Positions 1 through 43,787 of a stretch of DNA of 64,000 nucleotides are shown in pieces (the stretch's first letter is position 1; every line of letters starts with the position of its first letter). The notes under the pieces were generated by a model. The model was not told the DNA's origin, did no database searches, and saw only the letters and a list, made by a program, of their open reading frames with translations. Source of the stretch: Ignavibacteria bacterium (GTDB taxonomy: Bacteria > Elusimicrobiota > Endomicrobiia > PHAN01); contig JBGFRZ010000082.1 in NCBI GenBank assembly GCA_041694835.1, forward strand, positions 52,266 to 116,265, in the 5' to 3' direction. The position numbers were made by a program, and so were the translations under genes.

Positions 1-1511
1 ACAATGCCTTTTTCAATTTTTTCCTTGTTCGCTTCGTAAATTTTGTTCCATTTATCTTTTGTGCCGTAATACCTCTGCGAAATCGACTGCAACGTTTCTC
101 CGGGAAGCACCTTATGCGTTCTTGCGGCAGGTGGCGGCGGTGTTCTTTCAGGACGTCTGCGCATCTCCTCGGAAATAACAGACGGACTGGAGACCTCTAC
201 ATTTAAAATATCGGTAATGTTTTTTTCGGGAGTTTTTGTAAATTCCGCCGGTGAGGGCGGGGTTGATATTAAAACCGGAATAATCTCTTTTTTCTGGACA
301 GGCGCATAAGTGGATATTTCAGCGGTAAACTCCGTTAGAAGTAAGTCACCAGAGGCGGCCGGCCCCGATGAATATAGGGGAACTTCTAACGGGATAAATT
401 GTTTTTCTTGCACGAGAGCGGGTTCAGGCGGTGGTATCGGCAACTTTCTGTGTTCTTCGAATTTGACGGGATGGAATGTTTCCCGCGTTTTAACGACATC
501 TTTTTTTCTTTCACCGAAATAAACCGAAATACCGAACATATGACTCCCCGACATTTCAGACATACCCCCTAAAGGATACAACATCGCATAGTCGAAAGAA
601 ATATTTTTAATGTTCATTCCGAGACCCGCTGTAATCCTCCTGTAATTATTGCTGCCAAAATTGAACCCTGTCCTCAAAACAAGTACTTCGTTTAACAATT
701 TCTTTTCGACTCCCAAATTGACCGTCTGCCGTTCGGACGATATTACATAATCGGCGGCAAGCAGAAAATCTTTTTCCTCGTATGACGCTCCGAATACATT
801 TCCGGCCGGTCTCTTGTATTTTTTATTATCTTCGCTTTCAATCTCCGTGTGATAACCAAATTTTATATTGCCGAACCGCAAAATAACTCCCAATGGAAAA
901 GACATGAAATCTCTGTTATACGGTTCTCTAAATACGGGGTCGACTTTTTGATAATTATCTCGTATGGGAATTCTTATCAAATAATTTTTGACGCCAGCGC
1001 CGACGAAAACAAAATTATGCGGGTTCCACGAAAAGTTGAGCGCATAAATTTCTTCAGAATAATAATCACCGAGGGAAAGACCGCTGTAGCCTGCGCCAAA
1101 ACCGAAATTTCTAAAAGGTATTCCGAAAGAAAAAGAAGCGTTTGATATATTGCTCCTGTCATCTAGACCAATATGCAGTTTGCTGTAGCCAAACGAGAGA
1201 GTCGTATTTCTAAGAGACGAAACGCTCGATGGATTAAAAAACACAACTCCCGCATCCTCCGTCATAGAAGCCGCTGCCATACCGAGAGAACTTATGCGAG
1301 CGAAAGCAGGTTTTTCCTCGAAAGCCGCATAAAGGCAGACAATAGGCAATAGGCAGTGGGCAATAGTAAAATATAGGCAATAGGCAATAGGCAGTAGGCG
1401 GTAGTAGTTGGCGGTTGGCGATTTGTGATATGAATAACGAGCCACAAGCCACGAGCCACGAGCCACCAATAAACTTTTAAACTCTTGAACTATCCTCTGT
1501 CTTTTATTCAT
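1..1511 (-). CDS. FadL/OmpP1/PorV-like outer-membrane beta-barrel with C-terminal LysM domain (3' end runs off window start; start codon uncertain: ATG at 1511 or internal ATG ~1285/1264)
   Basis: Hand translation of the minus strand is open from 1511 to position 1. The N-terminal motif ARISSLGMAAAS..EDAGVVFFNPSSV matches the FadL-family signature SxGLGxA..ADDA...NPA. The same motif occurs in the ORF at 15423-17057. The C-terminus HKVLPGETLQSISQRYYGTKDKWNKIYEANKEKI is a typical LysM. It is not in the ORF track because there is no stop codon inside the window. Confidence 0.5.
   Translation of the reverse strand, partial: MNKRQRIVQEFKSLLVARGSWLVARYSYHKSPTANYYRLLPIAYCLYFTIAHCLLPIVCLYAAFEEKPAFARISSLGMAAASMTEDAGVVFFNPSSVSSLRNTTLSFGYSKLHIGLDDRSNISNASFSFGIPFRNFGFGAGYSGLSLGDYYSEEIYALNFSWNPHNFVFVGAGVKNYLIRIPIRDNYQKVDPVFREPYNRDFMSFPLGVILRFGNIKFGYHTEIESEDNKKYKRPAGNVFGASYEEKDFLLAADYVISSERQTVNLGVEKKLLNEVLVLRTGFNFGSNNYRRITAGLGMNIKNISFDYAMLYPLGGMSEMSGSHMFGISVYFGERKKDVVKTRETFHPVKFEEHRKLPIPPPEPALVQEKQFIPLEVPLYSSGPAASGDLLLTEFTAEISTYAPVQKKEIIPVLISTPPSPAEFTKTPEKNITDILNVEVSSPSVISEEMRRRPERTPPPPAARTHKVLPGETLQSISQRYYGTKDKWNKIYEANKEKIEKGI
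1290..1470. repeat. imperfect 7-8 bp periodic low-complexity repeat (ataggca / ggcaatag units, then agccacg units) overlapping the predicted signal-peptide coding region of the FadL/LysM gene
   Basis: The DNA shows aggcaataggcaataggcagtgggcaatag...ggcaataggcaataggcagtaggcggtag and gagccacaagccacgagccacgagccacc. On the minus strand this reads as a hydrophobic LLPIAYCLYFTIAHCLLPIVCLYAAF stretch. Confidence 0.6.
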
Positions 1512-1529
1512 TTCTATCGCCTGTCTTTT

Positions 1530-4500
1530 TTATCTCGCCACCACGACTGTGCCGTTTTTTATTTTATCTCCGACTTTCAACTGATAGATGTAAACTCCCG
1601 TCGGAAGCGCTCCGCCCGATTGTTCTTTGCCATTCCAAACCACCCATAAATCGCTCTTTTTCTCCATCTCTGCCACTTTATAGCCGCTCAAATCAAAAAT
1701 CTCACCCGTGACACTTTCGGAGAAAGGATTTTCGAAAGTTACATTAAACTCATCGTTTATCCCATCGCCGTTGGGTGTGAAAACTTTCGGCCATGCGTTT
1801 AAAATTTTAAACTCCACCGCTCTTTGAAGAGAGCGAACCCTGAACTCCCCCGAGTATCTCGCATCTGCAATTAAATATGCCCCCAAATATCTCCCGCCAA
1901 GATTGACCCACTCCACTCCGTTAAACCAGAAGACAGCATAACTGGCGACTTCTGAAGGTGTCTTTGAAACTGCGGGCGACGAAGCAGTGAGGTTTTCAAG
2001 TTGAAATTTAAGAGTCAGAGGTTTTTTGAATCCAGTTTTTATCAATGCCCCTTCCCTATCCATTATTTCAACCATATACGAGAGTTTCGTCTTCTGGTCG
2101 TCGGGTGGGTTTTCTTTCTTTGTAATTTTAACGGAATAATCCGGTCTTAAAATTTCGGGTTCAGCAACAATTTGGAATTTGCCGTTTTCCGAATGATGAA
2201 TGTTTTGATTTGGTTCGCCTGCCACCAATACTGCCGATGGCTCGCCAAGGACTCCAAGTGTATTTATTGCTCTAACCATATAATAGATATTAACGTCAGA
2301 GACCAAAGCGAGTGTCAATGTGCTAGAAGATGCGGGGACAAATGCCACATGGTTAGAAGTAAACAAGTCGTCAAATCTATGGGCCACGTAAACCCTGAAG
2401 CCTGCGAGGTTTCCTGGAGAGGAACCATCTGTATTTTTAATGGGCGCAGTCCACGAAAGGACTATATCTTTTGTATTTGGGATATCAAACTTAAAGTTCG
2501 TTGGAGGCAGGGGTCTTGCTGAAGGGTTTGTATAAAAACTCCAGTCAGTTGTTGGCGTAGAGCGACTCGTTTTATCTACTGCATAAACCCGCCAGTAATA
2601 GGTGCTGTCGACCAAGAGGGTCTTATCGAGGGGGACTTGATACGACAAAGAAGCAATATTTGAAACAACTTTTCTTGAAGAAAAATCGGGCGATGTCGAA
2701 TGCCATAACTCATAAACCACAAAGTCTTCAGGGTCTGGGTCAAAAGAAGATGACCACGAGAAATTAGGCATAAGCGTTTCTATAATGGCCCCGTTGGCTG
2801 GGGAAAGCAGAGAAAACGCCGAAGGATTTTCTTCAATTGAATTTACCTTGAAACTTAAAACACTTGACCATCTCTGATTGCCCCATATATCGCAAGCAAC
2901 TGCCCTCCACCAATAAGTTCCGTTCTCTTTAAGTTCCAGGGTTATATATGAAGTGGTTGTAATTCCGACTGAAGACACAAAGACATTGAAATTTTCATAA
3001 GACGAATAATGGACATCATACCAGAATGTATCCGATTCGGGGTCTGAACTTGGTGACCATATTAAAGTTGGCGTTCTAGTCGAAATTATCCCTGATGGAC
3101 TAACAGGAACAAAAGGGTTTGGTGGCAGATTGACTGCAATAAAACTTCGCGATAGTGTATCTGTTGAACCCGTAAGTGTTGAATGCGCCGTAACATACCA
3201 GTAATATGTCGTGTTGTTGGACAGGTCACTTTGAAATGTATATGAGGTAATATATATCGGAGAAATCTGAGTTTTAATGGCAAAAAGCGAATTCGTGGAA
3301 TAAGTCAGAGTGTAATAATACACATAATCATAAGGGTCAGGGTCTGTTGTTTCCTGCCACAAAAGAGTGGGCTTGAGATAACTATAAAAAGAGCCATCCA
3401 GTGGCGAAAGCAGAGAAAAAGCTTTTGGATTTTCTGAAGTTGCATCAACTATAAAAAACCAGGTTGAGGAATGCGTCATGGCATTAAAGGAATCAATAGC
3501 AATAACATACCACCAATATGTAGTGTTTTCATTTAGCGATGTAGTGACCGAAAAAGGTGGGGAACTAATTCCGACTGAAGAGACAAAAATAGAGAAATTT
3601 GAGACGGAAGAATAAAAGATGGAGTAGGTGACGGTGTCCCCATCCGGATCGATTGCACTTTGCCAACTTAAAGACAGCGTCTGGGTTCTAATTATTCCCG
3701 AAGATGCGAGCAAATTGAAACTGCCCGGCGGAAAATTTACCGCTTTTACCGTAAAACTTGAAATTTCCGATTGCGTCGTCAGGTTATCCGGAGACGACCT
3801 TGCGACAACTCTCCACCAATACACCGCATCTTCCTGTAAATCTATCAATTGATAGTAGGTGGTGAGTATATCGAAAATGACTGGCGGGGCTGGAGTGGCT
3901 GTGGTTGAAGAGTAAGAAATTCCGTAATATACAGTATTGCCGGGGTCTAAATCAATAGCGATGCTCCATCGAAGTGTCGGTGATGATGTAAAAATCATTG
4001 TGCCGCCCGTGGGCCAGAGAAGTGAAAATGGCTGAGGCGGTTCATTCACAGTATTTAATCTAAAACTGCCGGTTGACGACGAAACGGTTTCGCGGCCCGT
4101 CGTGTCTCTTGCATGAACCTTCCAGAAATACCTGGCGTTTTCAGTTAAATTCCACCACGGCGACCAGGATAACTGATTAATGCCCGACACTCTGGTAGAA
4201 ACATTTGATTCAAAACTGATAGATGTAGAAATATAAACATTATAAACAACAAAATCTGCAGGGTCAGGGTCGGAAGAAGCGTTCCACCAAAGCGTCGGCT
4301 GAAGGGTACCGGTTTCTATGGTGTCATTTATCGGCTGAATAAGCGAAAAAGCCGTCGGCGATTCGCTCGTCGCATTTACAACAAACTGAGGGGTGCCGGT
4401 TACTCCCAATGAAAGTAGTCCTTCTGAATCCCTCGCATAGACACGCCAGTAGTATGTCGTGTTTTCGTTTAGCGCGGGGGTTGTCCAATTTGTCTGGGTT

Positions 4501-5168
4501 ATATTCTCCACAACGCTTTTTGGCGAAAAATTGCTTGCGGTTGAATACCAAAGGATGTAACTCGTTATACTGTCGCCGTAGATATTGTCTGTGCCGACAG
4601 GAAATCCACCGGCATTTGTCACATCGCCCCATGCCAGAAAGACCAATGAAGAAAAAACAACTGTTGTCGGGGTTCCTGTGTAGTTGTAGCCACTTACATT
4701 CCCAGGTGAGTTGTTCTGAGTCGCCGACTGGGGCTCAGGACTTGAAGTGTCAAGCAGCGACCAGTTGATGTTGTCCGTCGAAGATTTTATCGCAAAAAAA
4801 TATGTTATATTATTTACAAGAGATGAAACGACTCTCATCTCCGAGTTGCTGGAAGAAGTTGAAGTCGAAAATTTTATCCTGTAGGGGTAAGAAATCGATG
4901 TGGAGTTGTTTGTCCAGTCGGCTTCTGCGACTATTACCCGGTAACTCGAAACTCTTACCTCGTACCATTGAGGCGCTCCTTCCGGCCCACCTGGAGCTGT
5001 CCATTGAAGGGTTATGTGTCTGAAGCCGCTTGATCTTATTGAGAGATCGGTGACCTGATTTGGAACAGCGTTCAGGGTCGTTAATCCAAATAAAAAAAGT
5101 ATCGTCGGCCAAAAAAAACGAACGGGGCGAAACTTATCGATATCCGACAGTTTTGTCCGATGTTTCAT
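1530..5168 (-). CDS. large secreted surface protein (1212 aa): signal peptide, >=8 Fn3/Ig-like ~100-aa repeats, C-terminal T9SS type-B sorting domain (gliding-motility-associated CTD)
   Basis: Recurring repeat motifs PTLxWxxxxDPDxDxxxYxxxxSTxxxF appear throughout. The last ~85 aa, FTPNGDGINDEFNVTF...WNGK...GVYIYQLKVGDKIKNGTVVVAR, match the TIGR04131-type FxPNGDGxND CTD. The N-terminus has a hydrophobic signal-like segment. Confidence 0.6.
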   Translation of the reverse strand: MKHRTKLSDIDKFRPVRFFWPTILFLFGLTTLNAVPNQVTDLSIRSSGFRHITLQWTAPGGPEGAPQWYEVRVSSYRVIVAEADWTNNSTSISYPYRIKFSTSTSSSNSEMRVVSSLVNNITYFFAIKSSTDNINWSLLDTSSPEPQSATQNNSPGNVSGYNYTGTPTTVVFSSLVFLAWGDVTNAGGFPVGTDNIYGDSITSYILWYSTASNFSPKSVVENITQTNWTTPALNENTTYYWRVYARDSEGLLSLGVTGTPQFVVNATSESPTAFSLIQPINDTIETGTLQPTLWWNASSDPDPADFVVYNVYISTSISFESNVSTRVSGINQLSWSPWWNLTENARYFWKVHARDTTGRETVSSSTGSFRLNTVNEPPQPFSLLWPTGGTMIFTSSPTLRWSIAIDLDPGNTVYYGISYSSTTATPAPPVIFDILTTYYQLIDLQEDAVYWWRVVARSSPDNLTTQSEISSFTVKAVNFPPGSFNLLASSGIIRTQTLSLSWQSAIDPDGDTVTYSIFYSSVSNFSIFVSSVGISSPPFSVTTSLNENTTYWWYVIAIDSFNAMTHSSTWFFIVDATSENPKAFSLLSPLDGSFYSYLKPTLLWQETTDPDPYDYVYYYTLTYSTNSLFAIKTQISPIYITSYTFQSDLSNNTTYYWYVTAHSTLTGSTDTLSRSFIAVNLPPNPFVPVSPSGIISTRTPTLIWSPSSDPESDTFWYDVHYSSYENFNVFVSSVGITTTSYITLELKENGTYWWRAVACDIWGNQRWSSVLSFKVNSIEENPSAFSLLSPANGAIIETLMPNFSWSSSFDPDPEDFVVYELWHSTSPDFSSRKVVSNIASLSYQVPLDKTLLVDSTYYWRVYAVDKTSRSTPTTDWSFYTNPSARPLPPTNFKFDIPNTKDIVLSWTAPIKNTDGSSPGNLAGFRVYVAHRFDDLFTSNHVAFVPASSSTLTLALVSDVNIYYMVRAINTLGVLGEPSAVLVAGEPNQNIHHSENGKFQIVAEPEILRPDYSVKITKKENPPDDQKTKLSYMVEIMDREGALIKTGFKKPLTLKFQLENLTASSPAVSKTPSEVASYAVFWFNGVEWVNLGGRYLGAYLIADARYSGEFRVRSLQRAVEFKILNAWPKVFTPNGDGINDEFNVTFENPFSESVTGEIFDLSGYKVAEMEKKSDLWVVWNGKEQSGGALPTGVYIYQLKVGDKIKNGTVVVAR

Positions 5169-5716
5169 ATCTTTATATGTGTGTAATTAAGCCATCTTAT
5201 GATTTTTGAGAATACGCTCTTTTTCTCATTCCTCACAATCTTGAGTGATGTGAGTTTAAGGTTTAATCTTCTTATCTCGTCCTCATACTGCTTGAGAGTA
5301 TTTTTATGGCCGCTTATTGCGACCGATTGAGTATCGATAATATCTTCTTTTTTGTGCAGCACAAGCAAGAAATCTTTTCGCCAGTTTGCGAATTCTTTCG
5401 CCTGAACGGAAATCTTCGCCAACTCGTTTTTCAGAGTTTCTATCTCGTCGCGAAGTTTTTCGTTTTCTTCCCTTATGCTGTTTTTCTCATCCTCAAGAAG
5501 TTGCATTTTTTGATTGCCATCCTCCGCCATCCGAGATAAAATCTCATTCTTTTTGTTTAAATCAGATCTCAGTCTTGTGATTTCGCTCATATACAGATTG
5601 TTTTTCTCTCTGAACAAAGATGATTCTGGCATTTCACCACGACAACCGAATTCATCCTCGAGGCGCTCTATCTTTTTAAGAAGCTCTGAAACTTTAGTTG
5701 CTCTTTGGCTTGCCAT
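5165..5716 (-). CDS. coiled-coil protein (183 aa), E/K/L-rich heptads
   Basis: Track ORF. It overlaps the downstream gene by 4 bp (ATGA) and the upstream gene by ~23 bp, suggesting translational coupling within the operon. Confidence 0.4.
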   Translation of the reverse strand: MASQRATKVSELLKKIERLEDEFGCRGEMPESSLFREKNNLYMSEITRLRSDLNKKNEILSRMAEDGNQKMQLLEDEKNSIREENEKLRDEIETLKNELAKISVQAKEFANWRKDFLLVLHKKEDIIDTQSVAISGHKNTLKQYEDEIRRLNLKLTSLKIVRNEKKSVFSKIIRWLNYTHIKI

Positions 5717-8700
5717 CGTTTCTCCTTATCTTGATTATGGGTTCGTTCAGGTTTTCCCAGAACTTCTTAAACGACGATGCCTTCTTTCCTTCTGAAAACT
5801 CTCCCTCGCCCTCTTTATCGACAAATTTCCTAATCGCCTTCTTGAGTTCATTTATTTCCTCGTCCTTAATTGAGATTTCAATCTCACGGGCTTTGTATTT
5901 TTTTGTTATTTCATCTATAATTTCTTTCAGCTCAAATACATCCGAGGTTGCGATTTTGGTCGCTGAATTTTTCAGATTTTCATAAGCGTCCGATATCTCT
6001 CTCTTCTGAGATTCCATCTCCTCAATTTTTCCGCGATACTCGCTATTTAAAAGCGATATATTTTTCTCGAGGTTCTCCGCTCTCGCTTTTAGTACCGCTC
6101 TTTCCTCTTCTTTCGCCTTTAACTCGGAATCTTTCAAAGACAGTTCTTCCTGTGCGGTCTTTATTGAGTGCTCCATTTCGGCTCTTATTTCACTTAACTC
6201 TGAATTCAGGGCGGATTTCATCTGCGATTTTTCTTTTAAAAGGGTTTCAATCTGATTTCTGTATTTCTCCTCCATCTCCCTTTGAATTTCCAATTCCTTC
6301 CGCCTGTAGTCGAGATGAAGCCTCTCGATTTCTCCCTCTTTCGAAATGATATCGGCTTTAAGTCTGTCTTTTTCATCGTACCACTTTGTGAGCATCTGCT
6401 CATAATTTTTTTTAGACTCTTCGACCTCTTTCCTAAGACGTTCGAACTCAAAGGCATTTTCCATCTCCACTTCCCTTCTCACTTCAAGCTCCATCTGCTT
6501 CCATTCGGCATTCATATTTCTTATCTGGTTTTCTTTTAGAACAATATCCTGTTTGATGTTGTTTGCTTCTTTTTGAGCCGATGAAATCTCCTCTCTGAGT
6601 TTAACGGTTTCTATCTGATAGTTCTTCTTCTCTAATTCAAGAGAAGTGATTTTTCTTTCAATCTCGCCTTTCTCAATCCTAGAATTATTCAGAATCTCCT
6701 GCTCTTTCATCAACTGCTCGGCGAGCTTTCTGTTTAACTCTTCCTTCTGTCTGGCGAATTCATTTTGGACTTCCCTGATTCTTGCGTCGGCATCTTTTTC
6801 TCTGAGTAAAATCGCGTGATTCAGATCGGACACCGCTTTTCTTGCATGTTCAAGCTCAAAACGAATGTGCTCCGCCTCTTTTGAGAGCGCATTACAGCGC
6901 GACTCTTCCTTTGAAAAACTCTCTATCAGACGATGAATTTCCCCGTTAAGCTCCGATATTTTGCTTTCATATCCGCCGATAGTTTTTGATTTTTCCCTCT
7001 CAAATTCTTTTGCAAGGTTTGCGACTTCTCTTTCCGCATCTCGCTGAATATTTACAACATCATTCCTGAGCGACGTGATTTTGGCCTCACTTTCGCTCGT
7101 CAACCTTGATATAGTCTCCTGATAATTCTTTTCAATTTCCTTTATCCTGACTTCGGCCTCCCTCTCTTTTAGCTCGATAGCGTGATTGCTCTCCGCTATC
7201 TTATGACTTGCGTTATCGAGCTCAAAAGTTATCGATGCGATTTTCTGCGAGTATGAATCGTTTTTAGATGATAACTCGACTATATGACTTCTAGAGTCGG
7301 TCAGATCTTTCTCCATGATTTTTTTGTCCTGTTCCAACCGCAAACTCCTCATTTCAAACTCTTTCATTCGCGCCGCGTACTGTTGCATCTGATTTTCATA
7401 TAAAGAGTCACTTCTCTGTGCGTCCTGTCTCAGGATAGAAATTTTCTGCTCATACTCCGCTTCTTTCTGTTCAAGCCTCTGCAACCATTGGGCTTCGGCG
7501 ATTCCGAGTTGAGCTTCCTTTGAGCTAAGTTTTGAGTCGTATTCGGCCGAAAGGGTTCTCAATTTTTCTTCGTAATGCCTTTTAATGTTTTCGAGTTCGG
7601 TTTCCTTCAAACGGACGGCGCTATTAAAATCTCTTTCGTGATCGGCGAAATATACCTTCAGAGATTTTATCTCCTCTTCCTTCTTTTGTATCTCAAAACC
7701 AGATTCCTGGATTTTTTTGTTAAGCTGTTCCTTGTAAAATAATATCTCCCTGAGAAGTTTGTCCTGTTCTGTTTTAGTCTTCCCCTGGAAAAGCGCAAAC
7801 TGCGTCTTCAGGAGAAAATACTCCTTCTCTTTCGCTTCGGCACATTTGACGAGTTCGTTTTTCTCGGTTCTCATCTTTTCAATAAGATGGACGAGCTTCT
7901 CGCCCTTTTCTTTCTGCTCCCTTAATTGAACCGAAGACATTGCAATCTGCGCCTTTATCGCAAGAAACTCTCTATCTCTTTCTTCAAGTTGTTTCAGGAG
8001 AATATTTTTTTCTTCCTGATTTTTTGCGACAGATTCCTTCAAGTCCCTCAAAGCGGCGTCTCTGTCGGATTCCATCCTTGAAATCCTGTTTTCAAAGTCG
8101 TCTTTTTGTTCAAGCAGATTTTTCTCGAATGCAAGCTTCAGTTTCGAGAGCTCTTCTTCTTTATTTCTCAGAGATGTGGACCATCCAAGTTTTTCTTCGT
8201 GCCATTTTCTCTCGAGATCTTTTATCTTCAGGGAAAACTGTTCTTCAATCTCTGTCTCCTGGAAGTCCCTCTGCTGCATCTGTGTCTTTAACGTCTGAAC
8301 CCATGTTTCTCTCTCTTGAGAGAGTCTTTCCTCAAGTTCTTTTATCTTCGATTCGGCTTTCGCTTTCGCTTCCTCTATTTCCTGCTCTCTTTTTTCCCGC
8401 CTGAGGCGTTCTTGAATGTCTTTTATAGATTCCTCGACTTTGGAGGCCATCGCTTCTTCTTCCTTAGACTTCATCATCTGTAAGAGAAGTTTTTCCCTTT
8501 CCTGCTGAAGTTGATTCTGAAGTTCTATTATCTGCTGTTGAAGTTTGGTGGCGGACGCGTCGGAGGCGGGGGTGTCCAAGATGGGCAGATGCTGTGCGGG
8601 CGGCTTCAGAGGCAGCCCGGTCCTTTTGGGGAGTACGGGCGAGCCCGAAGATGGTTTCGGGGGCAGCGGTAGATTTGGTTTTCCTCCTGCGTGTTGACCT

Positions 8701-8741
8701 TTCGATGGCAAAGGCGGAAGTTTGGGTTTTTTATCTTCCAT
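5694..8741 (-). CDS. giant coiled-coil protein (1015 aa) with proline-rich N-terminus (PKLPPLPSKG...PLPPKPSSG)
   Basis: Track ORF. The protein is an almost continuous E/K/L/Q heptad coiled coil. It overlaps the upstream 1616-aa gene by 11 bp. Confidence 0.5.
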   Translation of the reverse strand: MEDKKPKLPPLPSKGQHAGGKPNLPLPPKPSSGSPVLPKRTGLPLKPPAQHLPILDTPASDASATKLQQQIIELQNQLQQEREKLLLQMMKSKEEEAMASKVEESIKDIQERLRREKREQEIEEAKAKAESKIKELEERLSQERETWVQTLKTQMQQRDFQETEIEEQFSLKIKDLERKWHEEKLGWSTSLRNKEEELSKLKLAFEKNLLEQKDDFENRISRMESDRDAALRDLKESVAKNQEEKNILLKQLEERDREFLAIKAQIAMSSVQLREQKEKGEKLVHLIEKMRTEKNELVKCAEAKEKEYFLLKTQFALFQGKTKTEQDKLLREILFYKEQLNKKIQESGFEIQKKEEEIKSLKVYFADHERDFNSAVRLKETELENIKRHYEEKLRTLSAEYDSKLSSKEAQLGIAEAQWLQRLEQKEAEYEQKISILRQDAQRSDSLYENQMQQYAARMKEFEMRSLRLEQDKKIMEKDLTDSRSHIVELSSKNDSYSQKIASITFELDNASHKIAESNHAIELKEREAEVRIKEIEKNYQETISRLTSESEAKITSLRNDVVNIQRDAEREVANLAKEFEREKSKTIGGYESKISELNGEIHRLIESFSKEESRCNALSKEAEHIRFELEHARKAVSDLNHAILLREKDADARIREVQNEFARQKEELNRKLAEQLMKEQEILNNSRIEKGEIERKITSLELEKKNYQIETVKLREEISSAQKEANNIKQDIVLKENQIRNMNAEWKQMELEVRREVEMENAFEFERLRKEVEESKKNYEQMLTKWYDEKDRLKADIISKEGEIERLHLDYRRKELEIQREMEEKYRNQIETLLKEKSQMKSALNSELSEIRAEMEHSIKTAQEELSLKDSELKAKEEERAVLKARAENLEKNISLLNSEYRGKIEEMESQKREISDAYENLKNSATKIATSDVFELKEIIDEITKKYKAREIEISIKDEEINELKKAIRKFVDKEGEGEFSEGKKASSFKKFWENLNEPIIKIRRNDGKPKSN

Positions 8742-11700: not shown

Positions 11701-13581
11701 TTGCATCAAAGACTGATGGACATTTTCAAGTTCCTTCATGTTTTTTGAATGTTCTTTTTCAAGCGATATTTTTTGAGAGTCAATCTCGTCTATGTCGGCC
11801 TTTATTGAATCGATTTCGGCCGAGAGTTTATCGACTGACTGATGGTATCTACTTTCAAGCATATTTTCCTGATGGGCAAAACGTTGCTTCAAACTTAAAT
11901 AATCTCTTTCCTTTTCTGCCATCTTCTGCTTAAAATCCATCTCAAGACGCGCTTTTTTACTTTCAGCGACCTTCAGCTTTTCTTTATAAGGTTCAACTTC
12001 CACAAAAAGTTTCTTTTTAGCGTTCTCAAAAGACCTGGTGCTTTCCAAAAGTTCCGCTTCCACTGAATTTTTTGCGGCTTCAACCTGGGATTTCTTTTGA
12101 GAAAGAAGTGAAGAGTACTCCGTCTTTATTTTCGAAAAATCTTCCTGGAACTTTTGATATTTATCCTCGATGAGTTTTTTCTCCTCGGAAAGAATTTCAA
12201 TTTGATGTTTATGTTGAAGATTCTTCTGTTCCTGGTTCGATTGCCAATCGTTTTTGAACTTTTCCATCTCTTCGTACTTTCCGGAGAGTTCACTTTGATA
12301 TTCTATTTTCTGGTTCAAAACTTCTTTTTCAAGATCAGTACATCTCAAAGAGATTCTCTTTTTTTCATTTTCAATATTTGTTTTGTATTTTTCTATTTCT
12401 GCGTTTTTCTCCCTTATCTTTATTTGAGCCTGGATTTTAATGTCTTCTATATCCTGATCCGCGACTCTTATCATATTCTCCCATTCGGATTTTTCCTGCT
12501 CATATTTCTGATGAAGCTCCTTGAGCTGTTTTTCAGCCAGAGATTTTGCCTCTTTGAACTCGTTGAAACGTTTTTCGCGAGCGGAACTTTCCTGCGTTTC
12601 CTGAAGCATCATGTCAATTTTTAGTTTATTGAAAGCATCTTCCCTCTCTTTCAATAGTTTCTCGTATTTCTCCTTTTCGGAAAGCGACTCCCTTTCCATC
12701 TCACTCATCTGAGCCACTAACTTTTCTTTTAAATCCTTAAGCAATATCTTTTTCGCATTCAGTTCCTGCTCATATATTATCTGACGCTGTTTCAAAGCCG
12801 AGCTGAATGCAAGCAATCCCTCTTTTTTATCGTTATAAATTTTCTGGAAGTTTGCTCTCATTTCGGAAAGATTTTTTTCAACACCATTCAACTGATTATT
12901 GTAATTGCCTTCTAATTCTTTTTTCTCCCGATGAAATTTTTCCTCTTCCTGCCGGGACTGGTTGACTCTGAGGGATATCTGTGCTTTTAATGCCACGATT
13001 TCCTCTTCCCTGCCTTTCAGTCTTGTTACAAATTCCCCTATTTCCTGCTGTGCTTTTTTCTCGAAGGCAAGAAGCTGACTTTCTATCTCTCTTAATTCCT
13101 GAGTGGATGAAATTATCTCTTTTTCATCTTCGGCTTTTTTTTCGTTTTCCCTGGTTTGCAAATTTACTTTTGTTTCGTCTATCTCGGTTATGATAGCTCT
13201 GATTTTTTGACCCCACTCTTTATCCTCTTCTTCTATCTTGCGCTCAACCCTTTGCAGTTCGTCATTCCATTTTTTTCTAAGCGAATTTATCGAGTCCTGA
13301 TGAAGTTGCATGTTGTTTGAAAGTTCGAGTTCAACAAGTTCAAGATGGATGGAAAGTTTTATTTTTTCATCTTCTTTCTCTTTTTCTTTCTTCCTGTAAT
13401 TTTCCCGCTCAACTTCGAGCATCTTTTCTATGTTTTCAAGTTGCTCACGCGCCGTTTTTTTTATGCTTTGTAAATCATGGCTGGCGGTAAGCTCTATCTT
13501 TTTCTCGTCGCACTCAATATCCGATGTCGCTTTTTTTTCGGCGACTGGTTCCTCTTTGTGTTTGATTAGCCACTTCCACAT
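8731..13581 (-). CDS. giant coiled-coil protein (1616 aa) with C-terminal TPR-like repeats
   Basis: Track ORF. It reads as ~1500 aa of SMC/myosin-tail-like coiled coil followed by LEILREFTRNNPSSAEAQQYMSLCFYNTDKLDDALMAIKKAISIEPKN (TPR). Confidence 0.5.
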   Translation of the reverse strand: MWKWLIKHKEEPVAEKKATSDIECDEKKIELTASHDLQSIKKTAREQLENIEKMLEVERENYRKKEKEKEDEKIKLSIHLELVELELSNNMQLHQDSINSLRKKWNDELQRVERKIEEEDKEWGQKIRAIITEIDETKVNLQTRENEKKAEDEKEIISSTQELREIESQLLAFEKKAQQEIGEFVTRLKGREEEIVALKAQISLRVNQSRQEEEKFHREKKELEGNYNNQLNGVEKNLSEMRANFQKIYNDKKEGLLAFSSALKQRQIIYEQELNAKKILLKDLKEKLVAQMSEMERESLSEKEKYEKLLKEREDAFNKLKIDMMLQETQESSAREKRFNEFKEAKSLAEKQLKELHQKYEQEKSEWENMIRVADQDIEDIKIQAQIKIREKNAEIEKYKTNIENEKKRISLRCTDLEKEVLNQKIEYQSELSGKYEEMEKFKNDWQSNQEQKNLQHKHQIEILSEEKKLIEDKYQKFQEDFSKIKTEYSSLLSQKKSQVEAAKNSVEAELLESTRSFENAKKKLFVEVEPYKEKLKVAESKKARLEMDFKQKMAEKERDYLSLKQRFAHQENMLESRYHQSVDKLSAEIDSIKADIDEIDSQKISLEKEHSKNMKELENVHQSLMQKMEDEKKNHSLALESFNVKLKEEKGSIEAKIEELNSVVISEQKRFDETVSAKNDENNQLEKVLLEKTAVLQKNLDATRFELEGKKKIAIESLERTKVGFNFFKEKCESEISESERHIQAISKKVNDLISANKYEIEEKESIISAELELVRKKLEESSKKLDETRKKHADILIEFDNKITFLNASRETNIHKYEKEIKILELENENEKKLINEEIEKIENESEEMKSRHAELLAEKKREIEKLKSDHLRFEQEYKARLNHMESEFNKVKELLISKITSNEMELAQLEEKHPGMVATRQQQIQELNAKLKEQEDNYTKNRDSYFQSHEQFVKRIEKRKENLENQMKAIKIKQEQELSEVEEKLKVGQQNLKVLEDEMKTKFENSSQNYAAEKHSLDRKRDELEHKLKALVGTNRDEVRILDRQLYVLKTQMALREKSWHEEEKKQNENYENERKVLAEELTMLQNNFLEVQNAGKTALCSKTSELNAFINKSQASLEQTKNELKNKETTWTDTNKRLEEQISTLQKTIREQGDYWSNLKSQKEEEMKELGNKITTWESYVTDEEQRITKEHLAEKEKIEREMEKLSSEMEKLKKETGETISGKIKTQRELEAKYDDEKNRLESEWVLQEAKLLKERETLLAEVNLWESKLKESENSSAKIIGEIEKEIESRKLKVALSKSEFETARLRHEKKSKNLLKKLEKDLTELLRKYNDYLSESKNKIYMEEEKITTLSKRLELRNERLQNETKKRGEELQKYIDELKGVLEETIDKNKSQHKLSSQAIENLRKELADAGASYMKDSPEISAQLKLYEDKNTELISMVREISELENSIMSEKDRFTKLLELKMNQLDVLEAGMQMTTKEIMAESIRRREMRENLKKFADDFMGKMVSYGQTPKEVRPMLLKRAVELCEQGSYSESLEILREFTRNNPSSAEAQQYMSLCFYNTDKLDDALMAIKKAISIEPKNENLISFEKELTNKINNKSGGKNGR

Positions 13582-13596
13582 ATTATTCCTCCGCTT

Positions 13597-15411
13597 TTAT
13601 TTTCTTGATGCCTCGAGTTTTATCTGTTCAATAAAGTTTGACAGCTCCGTGTCATTTGGGTTTATGTTTAACACCGCTTCATAATTTGCAATCGCTTCGT
13701 CATATCTTCCGAGAGCATAATATGAAGCGGCAATATAACTGTAGGCGTCGGTCAAAGTGTTGTCGATTGAAAGGACGTACTCAAGATAGCTTATGGCATC
13801 CTCATAGTTTCCCGCTTCATAACTGGAGAGTCCTGCCTGATAGTAATCCGCAGCGTCACCTTCCGAAGGAGCGGCTTCTTCGTCAACAACCTCTTCACCC
13901 TCAAGAGCGCTGCTTTTCGGCTTTTCTCTTATAAAGATTTTACCGTCATCTTCAAGTTTTCTTATGACATCCATTATTTTCTTTCTTCCTTCTTCTGTCT
14001 GTAACGGCGTTACGGATTGGGTGTACTGCATTTCTTCTTGAATAAGTTGGACCGCGTTAGACGACATGTTGGCAAAAAACTTATTTACCACATCCTGAGG
14101 CACTCCTTTGAGTGAGCGGGCAAGAAGTTCCGAATTTTTCAAATCTGGAAAGTTAAGTATTGTCTGCATCGTCTGATCCGTGAAGTTCTTAATGTCATCA
14201 AACTTCAATATAAACTTTCTGACCCTGTCGTAGAGTTCCGGTTTTTCGTTCTGTAGATAATCCAGTATGTTGTCCCTTGTTACGTTGTCAACCTGATCAA
14301 GCACTTTCAAAAGATGCTCTATGCCGCCTATTAGGAAGTCTATCTTTTCTTTTATGTCGTCGTCTATCTTCATTACCTTATCCCTCGTCATCTGTCTTAT
14401 GGTCGCCATCTCTATGGCCACCTGCGACTGAACCTGCGCCGAAAGGCTGAGAAGTATCTCTTTGACATGCTCGGGTTTAAGATAACTTATTACGAGAGCT
14501 ATTATTCTTGCGCTTTCTTTCCTTATTAAATATATAAGTCTTTTAAGATTTTCGTCATCTACATAGTGAAACGGTTTGTACTTTTTTTTCTCCTCTTCCA
14601 GCGCTTCAAGCTCAGCCGCAGAAAGAGCGCCGCCTCCGCCTCCTCCTTCACCGCCTTCTGGCTCCCCCTCGGGGTTTTCGAATTTTGAATCCACGGTAAC
14701 TTCTGTTCCGCCCTTTTCCCTCATCGTTTTTACATATGCACGGAAAAAGCCAGCAAGAGGACCGAAAAGAAAAAATAAAAGAAGAAATGCTATAACAAGA
14801 GGTATCAAAACAAGCGGCTTCAGCAGCTCTTCAAAAAATCCCGTCGTGAATTTTGTTTTCTTAAAATCTATCCGGTCACCGCGCTTTTGATCTATTCTGA
14901 GAGCGGAAGTAATAGCATCTTTTACGGCTTCAAGTTTCGACTCGGGAACTTTTTCATCGTGCAAAACAGTCACTATCTGTTTTTTCAGAGCAATTTTGAC
15001 CTCGACAGTTATTTTTTCCTGCTGGCCGGCCTCTTCTTTCGATTCGCCGACTTGATCCGCTTGAGAAACCGCTCTGGGCGCCGGAACACCCGGCAGCAGA
15101 TACTCCACCTCGCCTATCGGCTTCTTTTTTTCGGCCTTTCTTTCCCTGACGAAGGTTTTTCTGGTTATCGTATCAAGACCGAATTCGACATCGACTATGG
15201 CTATCGCTTTATCCGGTCCAAGTATCCTGTCAAGGATGTCTTTCTGAACGTACTCCGTCTTTTCTTTTTCGTACTTGAGTTCATGTTCTATCAGTGAGAT
15301 TTCCGCAGACTGCGGGGTCATCTGTCCATAAAGATAAACAAAAGAAGAAAGAGCCAGTAAAAGTGCCACCGCGCTTTGTTTCAAATTTTTAAGCTGTTTT
15401 AATTTTTTCAT
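13597..15411 (-). CDS. membrane protein fusing FliF/YscJ-like periplasmic ring-building motif, TM helix, FliG-like middle+C-terminal domains and C-terminal TPR repeats (604 aa)
   Basis: N-terminal signal/TM anchor MKKLKQLKNLKQSAVALLLALSSF. The periplasmic segments AIAIVDVEFGLDTITRKTFVRERK and ITVEVKIALKKQIVTVLHDEKVPESKLEAVKDAITSALRIDQKRGDRIDF resemble FliF ring-building regions (compare SARVHLAMPKPSLFVREQK and VTVTLEPG...VVHLVSSAVAGL). A second TM helix is PLVLIPLVIAFLLLFFLFGPLAGFF, followed by a Gly-rich linker. Then ESARIIALVISYLKPEHVKEILLSLSAQVQSQVAIEMATI ... DIKNFTDQTMQTILNFPDLKNSELLARSLKGVPQDVVNKFFANMSSNAVQLIQEEMQY..EEGRKKIMDVIRKLEDDGKIFI follows the FliG/MgtE-N fold pattern. TPR repeats lie at the C-terminus. 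Confidence 0.5.
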   Translation of the reverse strand: MKKLKQLKNLKQSAVALLLALSSFVYLYGQMTPQSAEISLIEHELKYEKEKTEYVQKDILDRILGPDKAIAIVDVEFGLDTITRKTFVRERKAEKKKPIGEVEYLLPGVPAPRAVSQADQVGESKEEAGQQEKITVEVKIALKKQIVTVLHDEKVPESKLEAVKDAITSALRIDQKRGDRIDFKKTKFTTGFFEELLKPLVLIPLVIAFLLLFFLFGPLAGFFRAYVKTMREKGGTEVTVDSKFENPEGEPEGGEGGGGGGALSAAELEALEEEKKKYKPFHYVDDENLKRLIYLIRKESARIIALVISYLKPEHVKEILLSLSAQVQSQVAIEMATIRQMTRDKVMKIDDDIKEKIDFLIGGIEHLLKVLDQVDNVTRDNILDYLQNEKPELYDRVRKFILKFDDIKNFTDQTMQTILNFPDLKNSELLARSLKGVPQDVVNKFFANMSSNAVQLIQEEMQYTQSVTPLQTEEGRKKIMDVIRKLEDDGKIFIREKPKSSALEGEEVVDEEAAPSEGDAADYYQAGLSSYEAGNYEDAISYLEYVLSIDNTLTDAYSYIAASYYALGRYDEAIANYEAVLNINPNDTELSNFIEQIKLEASRK

Positions 15412-15422
15412 ATATTTACCCT

Positions 15423-17057
15423 TTATCTAAGTTGGTTCAGGAACTGCGGAACCACTCTGTTTGTTGGATCTATTTCGAGCACCCGCATCCAGACCTCTTT
15501 TGCTTTTTCCGGCTGATCCATCATAAAGAAAGCGCTTCCCATAATTTCGTAAGCTGTCACATGGTTCGGTTCAAGATTCAGCACTTCCTGGGCTTTAATA
15601 AGGGCTTTGTCATATTTGCCGTCTATTATGGCTTGTCTTGCGTCGAAGATCTTCTGATCTATTATAGTAAATCCTGCGATTGTTTCCTTGAATGCTTCCG
15701 TAGGCGGGATGCCCATTTCTTTTTCAATCCTGTTCAACAAAGCAAGTAGCTTCATGTTCTCGGGTTTTTTGTAATAAGCATATCTGAAAGAGTTTATGGC
15801 GCCCGTGTCGTCGCCTTCTATATATGCTACAATCCCTTTTCTTGTCGCTACGGCATCTTCAGTATCTCCTACCACAGTGTCTATGTGACCTATTATTACC
15901 TGTAGTTTTTTGGACATATTCTGTGCATCTTTATTGGCCGGGTCTATATCAAGAAGTTTTTCAAGTCGATTGTGGGAAAGAAGCATGTCTCCTTTTCTGT
16001 AGGATTCTATAGCTTCTTTCATAAGACGCACCACTATAGCCGCTCTGTTAGCGCTTACCGATTCCCCTATTTTCCACGAACCGGATATTCTATGTGAAAG
16101 TCCGAGCTCATGCAAAGCAAACGCATAATCAAGCCCGTAATCTTTATATTTGAAACCAAAACCAGCGGTTGTCTCTCTTATTCTACCTTCGCCCTCGAAT
16201 CCGAGACGCATGGCAAGATAATTCATAAGCCAGTATTCTGTCCCTATGTGCCAGCCGAGATTTGCGTTAAGCGATTTTTCAATATCAAACGCCAGTAAAA
16301 ACTTTTTTTTCATAAACGGATGGGCCGCGCCGACTCTGAATATCATAGGAAGTTTGTCTTCCGTATCGCCAAAGCTCGTAGAAATTATGTTCCTGACACC
16401 GAAAGCAATTTTTATATCGGGCAACGTGTCATTTACTCCTTCAAGGAGCAGCGCAAGATCGAATGTTAGGGCTCCGCTTATAGAATCGGCCAGAGCATGG
16501 TTCATGTACTTCCCAGAAAGACCTATGGAGAGATTTTCTCTTATTCTTCTGCCGTATGCTGCCATTAAAGCCAGACGGGAATCTTCAAATGTGCCTAAAT
16601 TTTCAATCTTAACTATGTCCTGTGTAGTTGGGTCTATGTTTATCGCTATTTTTTCAAAACCGCCCGAGTGGAGACGGACGATGTTTGCTCCGAAAACTCC
16701 CAACTTTGCGGTTGGATGCACATACGACAGAAAGTTATAGTTGGTATCGGCAAAAAGCGTGGCATGGAGAGCCATAACTTCTTTCCTGTCAAGCTGGGTC
16801 AGAGCTGCCGGATTCCAGTAAGTAGCGGAGGCATCGTCGGAAACCGCGAAAAACGCTTTTCCCATACCAAGTGATTTAGCGCCAGCACCCCATGAAAGGA
16901 ACTGCCCAGGCTGGCCGCCGGTGGCAGCGGCAAAGACAGAGGATAGCGGCGAGAGACAAGAGACGAGAGAACAAATAAAAACAAAAGCCATCCCTGACAA
17001 AGTTTTTGCGACTTTGTTCGCTAGTTTTGTCGAGAGTTTTGTTTTTGAATTTTTCAT
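15423..17057 (-). CDS. FadL/OmpP1/PorV-like outer-membrane beta-barrel with C-terminal TPR domain (544 aa)
   Basis: A signal peptide is followed by GAKSLGMGKAFFAVSDDASATYWNPAAL, the FadL-family N-terminal signature. The body is beta-strand-rich. The C-terminal ~200 aa are TPR repeats. Confidence 0.55.
   Translation of the reverse strand: MKNSKTKLSTKLANKVAKTLSGMAFVFICSLVSCLSPLSSVFAAATGGQPGQFLSWGAGAKSLGMGKAFFAVSDDASATYWNPAALTQLDRKEVMALHATLFADTNYNFLSYVHPTAKLGVFGANIVRLHSGGFEKIAINIDPTTQDIVKIENLGTFEDSRLALMAAYGRRIRENLSIGLSGKYMNHALADSISGALTFDLALLLEGVNDTLPDIKIAFGVRNIISTSFGDTEDKLPMIFRVGAAHPFMKKKFLLAFDIEKSLNANLGWHIGTEYWLMNYLAMRLGFEGEGRIRETTAGFGFKYKDYGLDYAFALHELGLSHRISGSWKIGESVSANRAAIVVRLMKEAIESYRKGDMLLSHNRLEKLLDIDPANKDAQNMSKKLQVIIGHIDTVVGDTEDAVATRKGIVAYIEGDDTGAINSFRYAYYKKPENMKLLALLNRIEKEMGIPPTEAFKETIAGFTIIDQKIFDARQAIIDGKYDKALIKAQEVLNLEPNHVTAYEIMGSAFFMMDQPEKAKEVWMRVLEIDPTNRVVPQFLNQLR
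16911..16991. repeat. pyrimidine/purine-skewed low-complexity tract (ggcagcggcaaagacagaggatagcggcgagagacaagagacgagagaacaaa) encoding the signal-peptide h-region MAFVFICSLVSCLSPLSSVFAAATGG
   Basis: Direct reading of the DNA and its minus-strand translation. Confidence 0.55.
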
Positions 17058-17093
17058 TTCATCAAACCCTGTCCTCTACTCTCTCCTCCGCTT

Positions 17094-17462
17094 TTAATGT
17101 ATGACTCCAATTTTTCTTAAAGCCACTATCTTCCCGCCATCGACGGAAACCACACAGATATATCCGCCCTTGGCGACGTAATGACCGTTTTCGTCGCGAC
17201 CGTCCCACAGGATTGTATCTCCAAAAAATTCGAGATGCTTGACGGGGCGGCCAAAAAGATCGAAAATTTTTACCGCAATTCCAACGTCGGTCTGATTTGA
17301 TTTTTTTACAAGGATGCTTGTGGAAGTTTTTCTCGAATCGAACGGATTGGGATAGTTTGAAAGAAATATGTCAGAAGATGATGCGACGGATGCCGTCAAC
17401 AAAAGAATTGATGAGGCGAAAGGGATAAGTAAAAGATAATTTAAAAAGTTGATGTGCTTCAT
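17094..17462 (-). CDS. small secreted protein consisting of a signal peptide plus T9SS type-A C-terminal sorting domain (FlgD-Ig-like CTD) only (122 aa)
   Basis: LSNYPNPFDS...VKIFDLFGRPV..L....ILWDGRDENGHYVAKGGYICVV...KIVALRKIGVIH matches the TIGR04183/PF13860 CTD pattern. It is the first gene of the operon. Confidence 0.5.
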   Translation of the reverse strand: MKHINFLNYLLLIPFASSILLLTASVASSSDIFLSNYPNPFDSRKTSTSILVKKSNQTDVGIAVKIFDLFGRPVKHLEFFGDTILWDGRDENGHYVAKGGYICVVSVDGGKIVALRKIGVIH

Positions 17463-17971
17463 AAATTGCCTTCGGTAACCCGGCCGCCATAATCTCGCAT
17501 TTTGCTTGATGTTAGGCCCGTATCCTGACCTATAGTCAGAATGACCCGATTCAACATCGGGATCGGCTTTGCGTCCTCCGGTTTCCCGGAGTTTGCCATT
17601 TATCGGACAATCCTTACGTTTCCATCTCCGCCACGGCGGAAGGGGGCTATCAAAATAAAAATGCTACCGAACTTCCGCCCGGTAGCATAAAGATAGGGGG
17701 TCCTAAAACTTGTTGCAAACCACTACAACCGCAACCGCTAACAAATTAAACTTACTACACCTTCTCTCGGTAGCCCGGCCAGCTCCCCCGACATTATGTC
17801 GGGGGCATCGCTCCGATTTCCCGAAACGATTTTGATAGCCCCCTATCTTTAGCTCCGCGGCTTTGCGTCCTCCGGTTTCCCGAAGTTTGCCTTTATCGCA
17901 ATATATATATAATAAAATTTATGACATTTGTCAAGGTTTTTTTAACAGCCGAAATTCTGCCAAAAATTGCA
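17463..17971. other. structured 510-bp non-coding leader/element: two 41-bp direct repeats (17565-17605, 17859-17899) flanking ~250 bp with perfect hairpins and a 15-bp inverted repeat
   Basis: The direct repeat ggctttgcgtcctccggtttcccg(g/a)agtttgcc(a)tttatcg occurs twice. gggggctatcaaaat at 17641 pairs with attttgatagccccc at 17826. The hairpin cccccgacattatgtcggggg has a 9-bp stem and gctaccgaacttccgcccggtagc a 7-bp stem. No ORF >=60 aa lies in this region. Confidence 0.5.
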
Positions 17972-29816: not shown

Positions 29817-29833
29817 AATAAACCCTCTTTCCT

Positions 29834-37125: not shown

Positions 37126-37133
37126 GCATTCCT

Positions 37134-38849: not shown

Positions 38850-38882
38850 AGTTGTTTATTAAACAAAATAATTAAAATAAAG

Positions 38883-43431: not shown

Positions 43432-43701
43432 CGATTCCCTCCCATGAAATCCTTCGGATTTCTACATGAGTGTGTATCAGTGCCGACTTAGGCATTCGCT
43501 TCCTGCAAACATTATAGTAATTATTTTTGGTTTTTCAAAAGGTGCTACACTCAAATGTACTGCGGGGGTTGACCCCGTTAGAAATTATAGCGCTCTTAAG
43601 AGGAAATTAAAAGTTTCCCTGAACTCCTCAAATCATCAGAGATTTCTAACGGGGTTGACTAAAAAATTCGTATTTGATAGAATAACTCGCATATAATTTG
43701 A

Positions 43702-43787
43702 CGCCGGGGTGGCGGAACTGGCAGACGCAAGGGACTTAAAATCCCTCGGGGGGCAACCTCCATGTGGGTTCGATTCCCACCCTCGGC
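43702..43787 (+). tRNA. tRNA-Leu (anticodon UAA), long variable arm
   Basis: GCCGGGGTGGCGGAACTGGCAGACGC-AAGGGACTTAAAATCCCTC-GGGGGGCAACCTCCATGT-GGGTTCGATTCCCACCCTCGGCA gives a cloverleaf with a 7-bp acceptor stem, an anticodon loop CTTAAAA and a T-arm GGGTTCGATTCCC. A TATAAT lies 6 bp upstream. Confidence 0.8.

Follow-up and report, generated by a model that had tools for sequence, protein, structure and literature searches.

Positions 1–17462 of a 64,000-nucleotide stretch of DNA from an Ignavibacteria bacterium (GTDB lineage Elusimicrobiota; Endomicrobiia; PHAN01; contig JBGFRZ010000082.1), hereafter the window, encode eight tightly packed, co-directional open reading frames (ORFs) on the minus strand, which belong to a conserved gene module that is specific to the Elusimicrobiota and linked to cyclic di-GMP (c-di-GMP). 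Sequence and model comparisons indicate that products of this module share domains with the flagellar rotor, the flagellar stator and PorV of the type IX secretion system (T9SS), and rotor and stator genes are linked in most lineages. We read the cluster, with about even confidence, as the Endomicrobiia-type version of an Elusimicrobiota-wide, envelope-spanning, non-flagellar machine, in which a c-di-GMP-regulated, MotAB-driven rotor would be coupled to surface proteins and serve gliding-like motility or the handling of adhesins. Judged by the features that define the flagellum and T9SS, the system belongs to neither, and it appears to be undescribed beyond one annotation-level remark.

The ORFs, with the short names used below and starting from the first gene, are as follows:

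17094–17462, minus strand: sm, 122 aa, the first gene
15423–17057, minus strand: BAR, 544 aa
13597–15411, minus strand: FliFG, 604 aa
8731–13581, minus strand: ccA, 1616 aa
5694–8741, minus strand: ccB, 1015 aa
5165–5716, minus strand: cc183, 183 aa
1530–5168, minus strand: Fn3-rich protein with a type-B C-terminal domain (CTD), 1212 aa
3–1511, minus strand: PorP/PorV-like barrel with LysM, >503 aa, the ORF continuing past the edge of the window

From sm onward, the first genes are separated by 36, 11 and 15 nt, the next three junctions overlap by 11, 23 and 4 nt, and the last two genes lie 18 nt apart. The initial annotation had counted nine ORFs where we count eight, while its description of the packing (overlaps, or gaps of less than 40 bp) agrees with the measured junctions, the widest gap being 36 nt and the longest overlap 23 nt. 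With the exception of cc183, each ORF has homologues that keep this order elsewhere, so the layout of the cluster is not due to chance.

The rotor homology is carried by FliFG. From the N-terminus, this protein consists of a signal or first transmembrane (TM) segment, an RBM3 and collar region at residues ≈36–190, TM2 at 191–227, a Gly/Glu linker, FliG_M, FliG_C and a tail of two TPRs; the torque helix lies within FliG_C at residues ≈448–463. When compared with Pfam, FliFG scored 86.2 bits for FliG_C and 49.9 bits for FliG_M, in addition to TPR, and 23.6 bits for YscJ_FliF_C (PF08345), which is borderline to the cut-off of 23.8, and no Pfam match to PF01514 was found. A profile of the family matched Thermotoga maritima FliG (1lkv) with an E-value of 5e-62. 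An AlphaFold2 model made from 30 homologues (pLDDT 78) contained an N-terminal signal or TM helix, a long helix, an α/β domain with a disordered insertion, TM2, the Gly/Glu linker, an all-helical FliG-like region and the two-TPR tail. In Foldseek, the model matched structures of the FliG middle and C-terminal domains (E 9e-12) and the RBM3/β-collar, or S-ring, of FliF (6sd3, 8z5v and 8z4g; E ≈5e-5, TM-score ≈0.49). The S-ring matches were from Salmonella and Vibrio and covered the whole target chain. By Pfam, family profile and structural search, the FliF/FliG-like membrane fusion claimed in the initial annotation is thus real. It is also a reduced one: between the two TM segments there is a single RBM3/collar-like domain of ≈165 aa, profile and model comparisons both found FliFG to be without RBM1/2 of FliF and without a true FliG_N, and the protein falls below the FliG equivalog cut-off (TIGR00207, 115.6 bits versus 226.7).

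Three of the five classic charged positions of the torque helix are conserved in FliFG. The equivalent of D288 is Glu in all 30 sequences compared and that of D289 in 22 of them, and the equivalent of K264 is basic (Arg/Lys) in 19, or in 22 if His is counted. Only the E and P of the EHPQR motif are kept. More than 100 full-length clusters of FliFG homologues were found, at 30–79% identity, and all of the named ones are from Elusimicrobiota. The FliF-like module is uncommon, with 125 clusters in a set of 1.84 billion protein representatives, and was fused to FliG in each of seven full-length proteins tested. A TPR-less FliF/FliG subfamily of ≈480 aa also exists; in the related locus L105 (1699–6363; L-numbers denote related loci or contigs), such a gene has MotA, a pair of MotB-like genes and a TPR protein gene downstream of it, and a divergently oriented CheY-like gene on its upstream side. 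In another variant, the 847-aa protein P0317, a HisKA-HATPase histidine kinase is fused ahead of the FliF/FliG module.

A scan of the GTDB species representatives with FliFG, in which loci were compared by phmmer on six-frame ORFs, returned 73 loci, 72 of them from Elusimicrobiota. BAR is directly upstream of FliFG in 59 of the 60 loci whose upstream sequence is long enough, and in the great majority of loci FliFG is followed by an orthologue of ccB. Three layouts could be distinguished. The Endomicrobiia type, seen in the window, has sm, BAR, FliFG, ccA and ccB, often followed by a type-B-CTD protein and a PorP-like barrel. In the commonest type, often headed by a giant ORF, the order is BAR, FliFG, ccB, FlbD, MotA, MotB and a lipoprotein. 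The intermediate type consists of a giant ORF, BAR, FliFG, ccB, a type-B-CTD protein, a PorP-like barrel, an HATPase protein and a TPR protein. The conserved core is BAR, FliFG and ccB, followed by FlbD-MotAB in most lineages, and this phylum-wide conservation of BAR, FliFG and ccB argues for a physical interaction of at least these three. Within the operon that the initial annotation took as one machine, the type-B-CTD/PorP-like pair is an accessory module.

The stator that the initial annotation had suggested looking for was found as FlbD-MotA-MotB in the same operon in most related lineages, though not inside the 64-kb window. Among the 45 loci with a flank of 7 kb or more, 28 have MotA downstream. 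The only PDB matches of the L005 MotA were flagellar stators (8ucs_C, E 1e-52), and its Arg/Glu (R..E) pair is kept; the L005 MotB gave a match at E 4e-40, with the channel Asp kept and the plug detected by Pfam. In L103, the riboswitch, BAR, FliFG, MotA, MotB, ccA, ccB and an Fn3 protein form one cluster. In an Endomicrobia metagenome-assembled genome with a window-type locus (L013), motAB is at a separate locus (L104) beside rpsR-rplI-dnaB, and the L005 operon is flanked by the same ribosomal genes and dnaB. One contig, L034 (1–22345), carries two paralogous barrel-FliF/FliG-stator systems in tandem. FlbD and MotAB were the only flagellar genes besides FliFG in the annotated flanks of relatives; a search of the 41 window ORFs and of the flanks annotated in L001, L003–L005, L103 and L105 showed no genes for FliM/FliN, the type III secretion (T3SS) export gate, rod, hook or filament.

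BAR scored 140.5 bits with the PorV/PorQ family NF033709 (cut-off 90). Its model has 14 strands, with the barrel at ≈92–330, followed by 11 helices, the TPR solenoid occupying residues 334–543. The best PDB matches of the model in Foldseek were two PorV chains, 6h3i_F (E 7e-10), which is PorV in the SprA translocon, and 8gl6_F (E 3e-9), which is PorV bound to the CTD of RemA; FadL and TodX came next. We infer that the TPR arm is periplasmic. The gene before BAR, sm, encodes a signal peptide and a T9SS-like type-A CTD and nothing else. It scored 21.9 bits with the type-A Por_Secre_tail model (TIGR04183, cut-off 23), the CTDs of PorU and PorZ matched it at E ≈1e-6, and there was a weak match to FlgD_ig. 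The same CTD forms the extreme C-terminus of giant ORFs that lie directly upstream of BAR in 15 related loci (L004 1–5490, L005 1–7823 and stretches of 13 further loci). These ORFs exceed 1,800–2,800 aa within the flank, and the called genes encode 14,454 aa in L005 and 17,339 aa in L004. Pfam recognised only the CTD in the giant proteins, and no other domain. In L004, a sigma-54 response regulator sits between the giant gene and the riboswitches.

The coiled-coil proteins ccA, ccB and cc183 contain ≈30% Glu+Lys and 2–4% Pro+Gly, and their heptad coverage was 0.52–0.96, compared to 0.24–0.37 in shuffled sequences; composition and heptads thus agree with the three overlapping coiled-coil proteins described earlier. 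No hydrophobic segment was found in any of the three, and they are predicted to be cytoplasmic. ccB has a Pro-rich N-terminus, and its N-terminal ≈300 aa are conserved in every lineage; profile searches of the PDB and Pfam with this domain gave generic coiled-coil noise and no family. In some relatives, such as L003, the C-terminus of ccB is fused to FlbD. ccA is confined to Endomicrobiia-type loci and ends in a two-TPR tail. The C-termini of BAR, FliFG and ccA have a similar two-TPR unit of ≈70 aa (pairwise E ≈2e-7, a weak and generic similarity), which may be either a generic TPR likeness or a shared docking module. The scan of related loci gave no homologue of cc183; in the place of cc183, L079 has a 251-aa ORF that is not annotated.

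The last two genes of the cluster form a pair. The 1212-aa protein is secreted and has about ten Fn3/Ig-like repeats and a type-B CTD, with 45.1 bits for CHU_C (cut-off 27) and 34.6 bits for TIGR04131 (cut-off 35). Orthologues occupy the same position in L001, L004, L079 and L103. A look-up of the window's own contig found neither the 1212-aa protein nor FliFG on record. Its partner, encoded by the last ORF, is a weakly PorV/PorP-like barrel with a Pro-rich linker and a C-terminal LysM; it scored 44.6 bits with PorV_fam, 21.9 with PorP_SprF (cut-off 22.3) and 16.6 with TIGR03519 (cut-off 90.55). A homologue search with this protein gave three distant matches only, one of them in L079, where the PorP-like gene is followed by a 694-aa protein without a confident family and by no stator. 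A metagenome scan seeded with the L002 Fn3 protein yielded mostly unrelated CHU/PorP-type pairs; in contigs L081–L089, a type-B-CTD protein rich in Fn3 is encoded beside a PorP-like barrel with no FliF/FliG nearby. Since the pair is found without FliFG elsewhere, we consider it an accessory, mobile or independent module, and the 1212-aa protein an accessory cargo or adhesin outside the core. Taken together, the Pfam and NCBIfam results agree with the type-A and type-B T9SS sorting domains of the initial annotation (CHU_C above its cut-off, Por_Secre_tail and TIGR04131 just under theirs) and with its two FadL/PorV-like barrels, of which BAR passes NF033709 and has a model closest to PorV chains, and the last ORF is the weak one.

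The 5' end of the PorP/LysM ORF contains two heptanucleotide tandem arrays, given here for the coding strand:

1340–1404, minus strand: (CCTATTG)x8
1437–1466, minus strand: (GGCTCGT)x4

The arrays encode the hydrophobic leader of the protein, and their period of 7 suggests phase variation by slipped-strand mispairing. The repeat is not conserved in L079.

Upstream of the operon, we found tandem c-di-GMP riboswitches, which were absent from the initial annotation. In order of transcription, the region contains:

17906–17934, minus strand: promoter-like site, TTGACA-17 nt-TATATA, a consensus match only, ending 5 nt before aptamer 1
17765–17900, minus strand: aptamer 1, c-di-GMP-I-GGC variant (RF03167), 60 bits (gathering score 59), E 1e-13
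17651–17688, minus strand: intrinsic terminator between the aptamers, a 12-bp stem followed by a U-tract, found by sequence search and also in minimum-free-energy folds
17471–17607, minus strand: aptamer 2, c-di-GMP-I (RF01051), 45.2 bits (gathering score 35)

Aptamer 2 ends 8 nt before the start codon of sm, and a second consensus search gave a match overlapping the promoter-like site. Both aptamers lie 5' of the gene and reach the gathering score of their covariance model. We know of no established ligand for the c-di-GMP-I-GGC variant. One or two c-di-GMP-class aptamers were present in 14 of the 21 loci scanned, and the position is kept in 13 related loci: the tandem arrangement in six (L001, L004, L006, L007, L009 and L010) and one aptamer each, 5' of sm or BAR, in L014, L017, L019, L005, L038, L059 and L103. 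An aptamer of the RF03167 class is also found 5' of the homologous operon in L001, L004, L006, L017, L019 and L038, and L009 has an analogous terminator 3' of its aptamers. Elsewhere in the window, at 36061–39893 on the minus strand, there is a c-di-GMP-related gene cluster encoding a GAF-HD_5 protein, possibly an HD-GYP-type phosphodiesterase, a T2SSE ATPase with MshEN, a domain that binds c-di-GMP, and a GAF-GGDEF cyclase. A response regulator gene is located nearby, at 33989–35248.

These elements can be assembled into a model. By homology, FliFG would form an inner-membrane ring through its FliF-like RBM3/collar, with the FliG M and C domains on the cytoplasmic face. Flagellar-type MotAB, aided by FlbD and encoded next to the rotor in most lineages, would act on the torque helix of FliG and drive rotation of the ring. 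There is no T3SS gate, rod or hook; instead, we speculate that the ring connects through the periplasm with the TPR arm of BAR, and that BAR, by analogy with PorV in T9SS, binds surface proteins by their CTD. The proteins so held would be the giant ones of 14,000–17,000 aa in many relatives, and in the window the CTD-only sm and the Fn3-rich type-B-CTD protein with its own LysM-anchored PorP-like barrel. ccB, ccA and the shared two-TPR tails might serve as a scaffold that replaces the C-ring and ties in the stators. The tandem aptamers are predicted to set expression in response to c-di-GMP. The likely output would be the movement or tensioning of surface adhesins, that is, gliding-like motility or regulated adhesion.

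Several observations weigh against this model. Ring formation, rotation, contact between the TPRs and the collar, and binding of CTDs to the barrel are all predictions from sequence. The equivalents of R281 and R297 are basic in none of the 30 FliFG sequences, and the rotor-stator interface must therefore differ from the canonical one. tblastn and phmmer searches with MotA, MotB and FlbD, together with domain scans, found no MotA or MotB in the 64-kb window, so the stator of the source genome is deduced from its relatives. The window showed no SprA-like translocon and neither PorU nor PorK/L/M/N, which leaves the passage of CTD proteins across the outer membrane without an explanation. Its type-A CTD occurs only in sm, which has no passenger domain; this is odd for a device that moves adhesins. 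The BAR model is of medium confidence (pLDDT 67, from a five-sequence alignment). Finally, in minimum-free-energy folds the terminator forms with or without the aptamer, with several competing G5/C5 pairings, and these folds favour neither an ON nor an OFF riboswitch.

Other explanations account for parts of the data. The cluster might encode a secretion or attachment system rather than a motility device, with MotAB-FliFG acting like PorLM/GldLM to energise the export and anchoring of CTD-tagged proteins, the giant ones included, via the PorV-like barrel. This partly overlaps with our own reading, and it is in keeping with a cluster that encodes a barrel of the PorV family, type-A-like as well as type-B CTDs, and a PorP-like partner, with giant CTD proteins encoded next to it; T9SS is likewise powered by a 5:2 motor. 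However, neither the 64-kb window nor the annotated flanks of relatives yielded PorL/M (GldL/M), PorK/N, SprA/Sov or PorU. Continuous rotation of a large ring is suggested by the FliG torque interface and by the peptidoglycan-anchored, flagellar-type MotB, and a PorM-like periplasmic shaft would look different. We consider this explanation unlikely, though worth keeping in mind. Less likely again is that the operon is one of convenience, in which independent modules (a CTD protein with a PorV-like barrel, FliFG with coiled coils, and a type-B cargo with a PorP-like barrel) are transcribed together because all of them respond to c-di-GMP. The CHU and PorP genes do occur as a pair on their own in other contigs and are missing from many FliFG loci, and the genes after FliFG vary between lineages; but BAR and FliFG are adjacent in 59 of 60 loci, across FliFG identities of 30–79%, and ccB follows FliFG in the great majority.

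Little more than a slim chance is given to a degenerate flagellar relic that no longer rotates, in which FliF and FliG form a static platform, for example for polar organisation, signalling or the cytoskeletal anchoring of coiled coils. Such a relic could have lost RBM1/2, FliG_N, the R281/R297 charges and the H and Q of EHPQR, as is the case here; the window-type operon has no motAB, and one variant carries a histidine kinase fusion. Against it, intact flagellar-type MotA, MotB and FlbD are kept in tight linkage in two FliFG subfamilies, the acidic torque-helix residue is invariant, and a static platform has no need of a stator. FliG, the FliF-like part, MotAB and FlbD are flagellar families, and a few Elusimicrobiota have full flagellar sets, so we also considered an accessory of a genuine flagellum, a lineage-specific elaboration of the basal body comparable to the spirochaete collar or a second FliG. 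This is very improbable: there was no other flagellar gene in any annotated flank, two papers report that most Elusimicrobiota carrying these genes have no flagellar structural genes, the RBM1/2 region, where the export gate is housed, is missing from FliFG, and FliFG scores below the FliG equivalog cut-off (115.6 versus 226.7). A Zorya-like anti-phage defence built on a MotAB-type motor with long coiled coils seems next to impossible. ZorA has a long coiled-coil tail, ZorAB are homologous to MotAB, and the L005 MotB matches ZorB models; that match, however, reflects generic MotB/OmpA similarity, MotA matches flagellar stators only, and there are no ZorC/D-like genes. As for Zorya or any other defence system, PADLOC models matched neither a window protein nor MotA.

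A rotor coupled to surface proteins thus remains our preferred reading. It extends the initial annotation, which had proposed an undescribed envelope-spanning machine and had named two outcomes that would speak against it; the FliF/FliG and FadL resemblances proved not to be spurious, and 72 Elusimicrobiota genomes keep the genes together in a block. Uzun et al. (bioRxiv 10.1101/2022.07.08.499144) noted that most free-living Elusimicrobiota lack flagellar structural genes and yet carry numerous motAB, flbD and fliG homologues, whose role they called "unclear" and "enigmatic", and that a few members have full flagellar sets; Doud et al. (PMC7031533) reported flagellar genes to be absent in Elusimicrobia. 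A survey of MotAB evolution (PMC12505986) and one of giant genes (bioRxiv 10.1101/2023.11.21.568195) do not mention the system. Beyond the remark by Uzun et al., which is the sole prior trace, the openly accessible literature yielded nothing on the FliF/FliG fusion, on the barrel or coiled coils, on the synteny or on a link to riboswitches.

We would go further only tentatively, and with some doubt, to suggest a new rotary organelle, in which a minimal rotor of FliF S-ring and FliG, driven by MotAB and without a secretion apparatus or filament, turns or drags a PorV-like barrel carrying giant CTD-anchored proteins. Such an organelle would add to flagella and T9SS gliding a third way of achieving surface motility or adhesion, and it might be a reduced flagellum or, less probably, akin to a pre-flagellar rotor-stator core. 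If so, the FliF/FliG/MotAB module can work apart from the type III export apparatus, and flagellar evolution would gain a natural case of a rotor-stator core split from type III secretion. To our knowledge, the FliG-MotAB torque interface has so far been found only inside flagella, and a conserved non-flagellar machine with it would constitute a new class of envelope nanomachine. It would offer a candidate account of how members of a phylum described as lacking flagella, the magnetotactic ones included, might move or adhere, and the "enigmatic" motAB and fliG genes, previously remarked on and left unexplained, would gain a context. For structural work, FliFG is a naturally occurring fusion of FliF and FliG, and BAR a PorV homologue with a presumed periplasmic arm; the cluster also ties c-di-GMP riboswitches to a rotor-stator system.

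Elsewhere, the window has a probable replication origin region at 43400–59746, marked by tRNA-Leu (43703–43788), yidC, jag, mnmE, ksgA, dnaA (49836–51236), dnaN, gyrB and gyrA, with a switch in coding strand and AT skew at ≈43–44.7 kb. This would place the operon at a distance of ≈26–43 kb from oriC, with its transcription running in the direction of replication. Restriction-modification systems are dispersed among housekeeping genes, with three genes for N6/N4 DNA methylases (22470–23474, 29028–30706 and 55468–56484), one of them paired with a BsaWI-like restriction endonuclease.

Among known systems, the flagellar motor shares with FliFG the FliG_M and FliG_C domains with their torque helix, the membrane topology and a periplasmic ring domain like the RBM3/collar of FliF, and in most lineages the operon also encodes FlbD (FlbD/SwrD) and flagellar-type MotA/MotB with a plug, a channel Asp and an OmpA-like peptidoglycan anchor. 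Unlike in the flagellum, FliF and FliG are here one polypeptide, without RBM1/2 or FliG_N and with a C-terminal TPR tail; the R281/R297 equivalents are uncharged; genes for FliM/FliN, export apparatus, rod, hook and filament are not nearby; the partners are a PorV-like barrel and coiled coils; and the hosts are reported to be non-flagellated. With T9SS and the gliding machinery of Bacteroidota, the system has in common a PorV-family barrel, surface proteins with type-A-like and type-B CTDs, a type-B cargo beside a PorP/SprF-like barrel and very large surface proteins; there, too, an inner-membrane 5:2 ion-driven motor is found, and a rotary motor acts on surface adhesins. It differs in having MotAB and a FliF/FliG ring in place of GldLM/PorLM, a TPR extension on the PorV-like barrel and a c-di-GMP riboswitch, with no GldK/N, SprA or PorU seen, and in its host phylum, as Elusimicrobiota are not part of the Fibrobacterota-Chlorobiota-Bacteroidota (FCB) group.

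The Agl-Glt gliding machinery of Myxococcus, an envelope-spanning complex for motility, resembles the system in organisation only, with an ion-driven motor, TPR-rich proteins, outer-membrane barrels, the long cytoplasmic coiled-coil protein AglZ and a surface adhesin, but its Agl motor is of the TolQR/ExbBD type and has neither FliG nor FliF. Engineered FliF-FliG fusions (PDB 8z4d and 8z4g) are full-length laboratory constructs in a normal flagellum, whereas FliFG is natural, non-flagellar and limited to RBM3 and FliG_MC; both entries matched FliFG, and they show that a covalent fusion of the two proteins is compatible with ring assembly.

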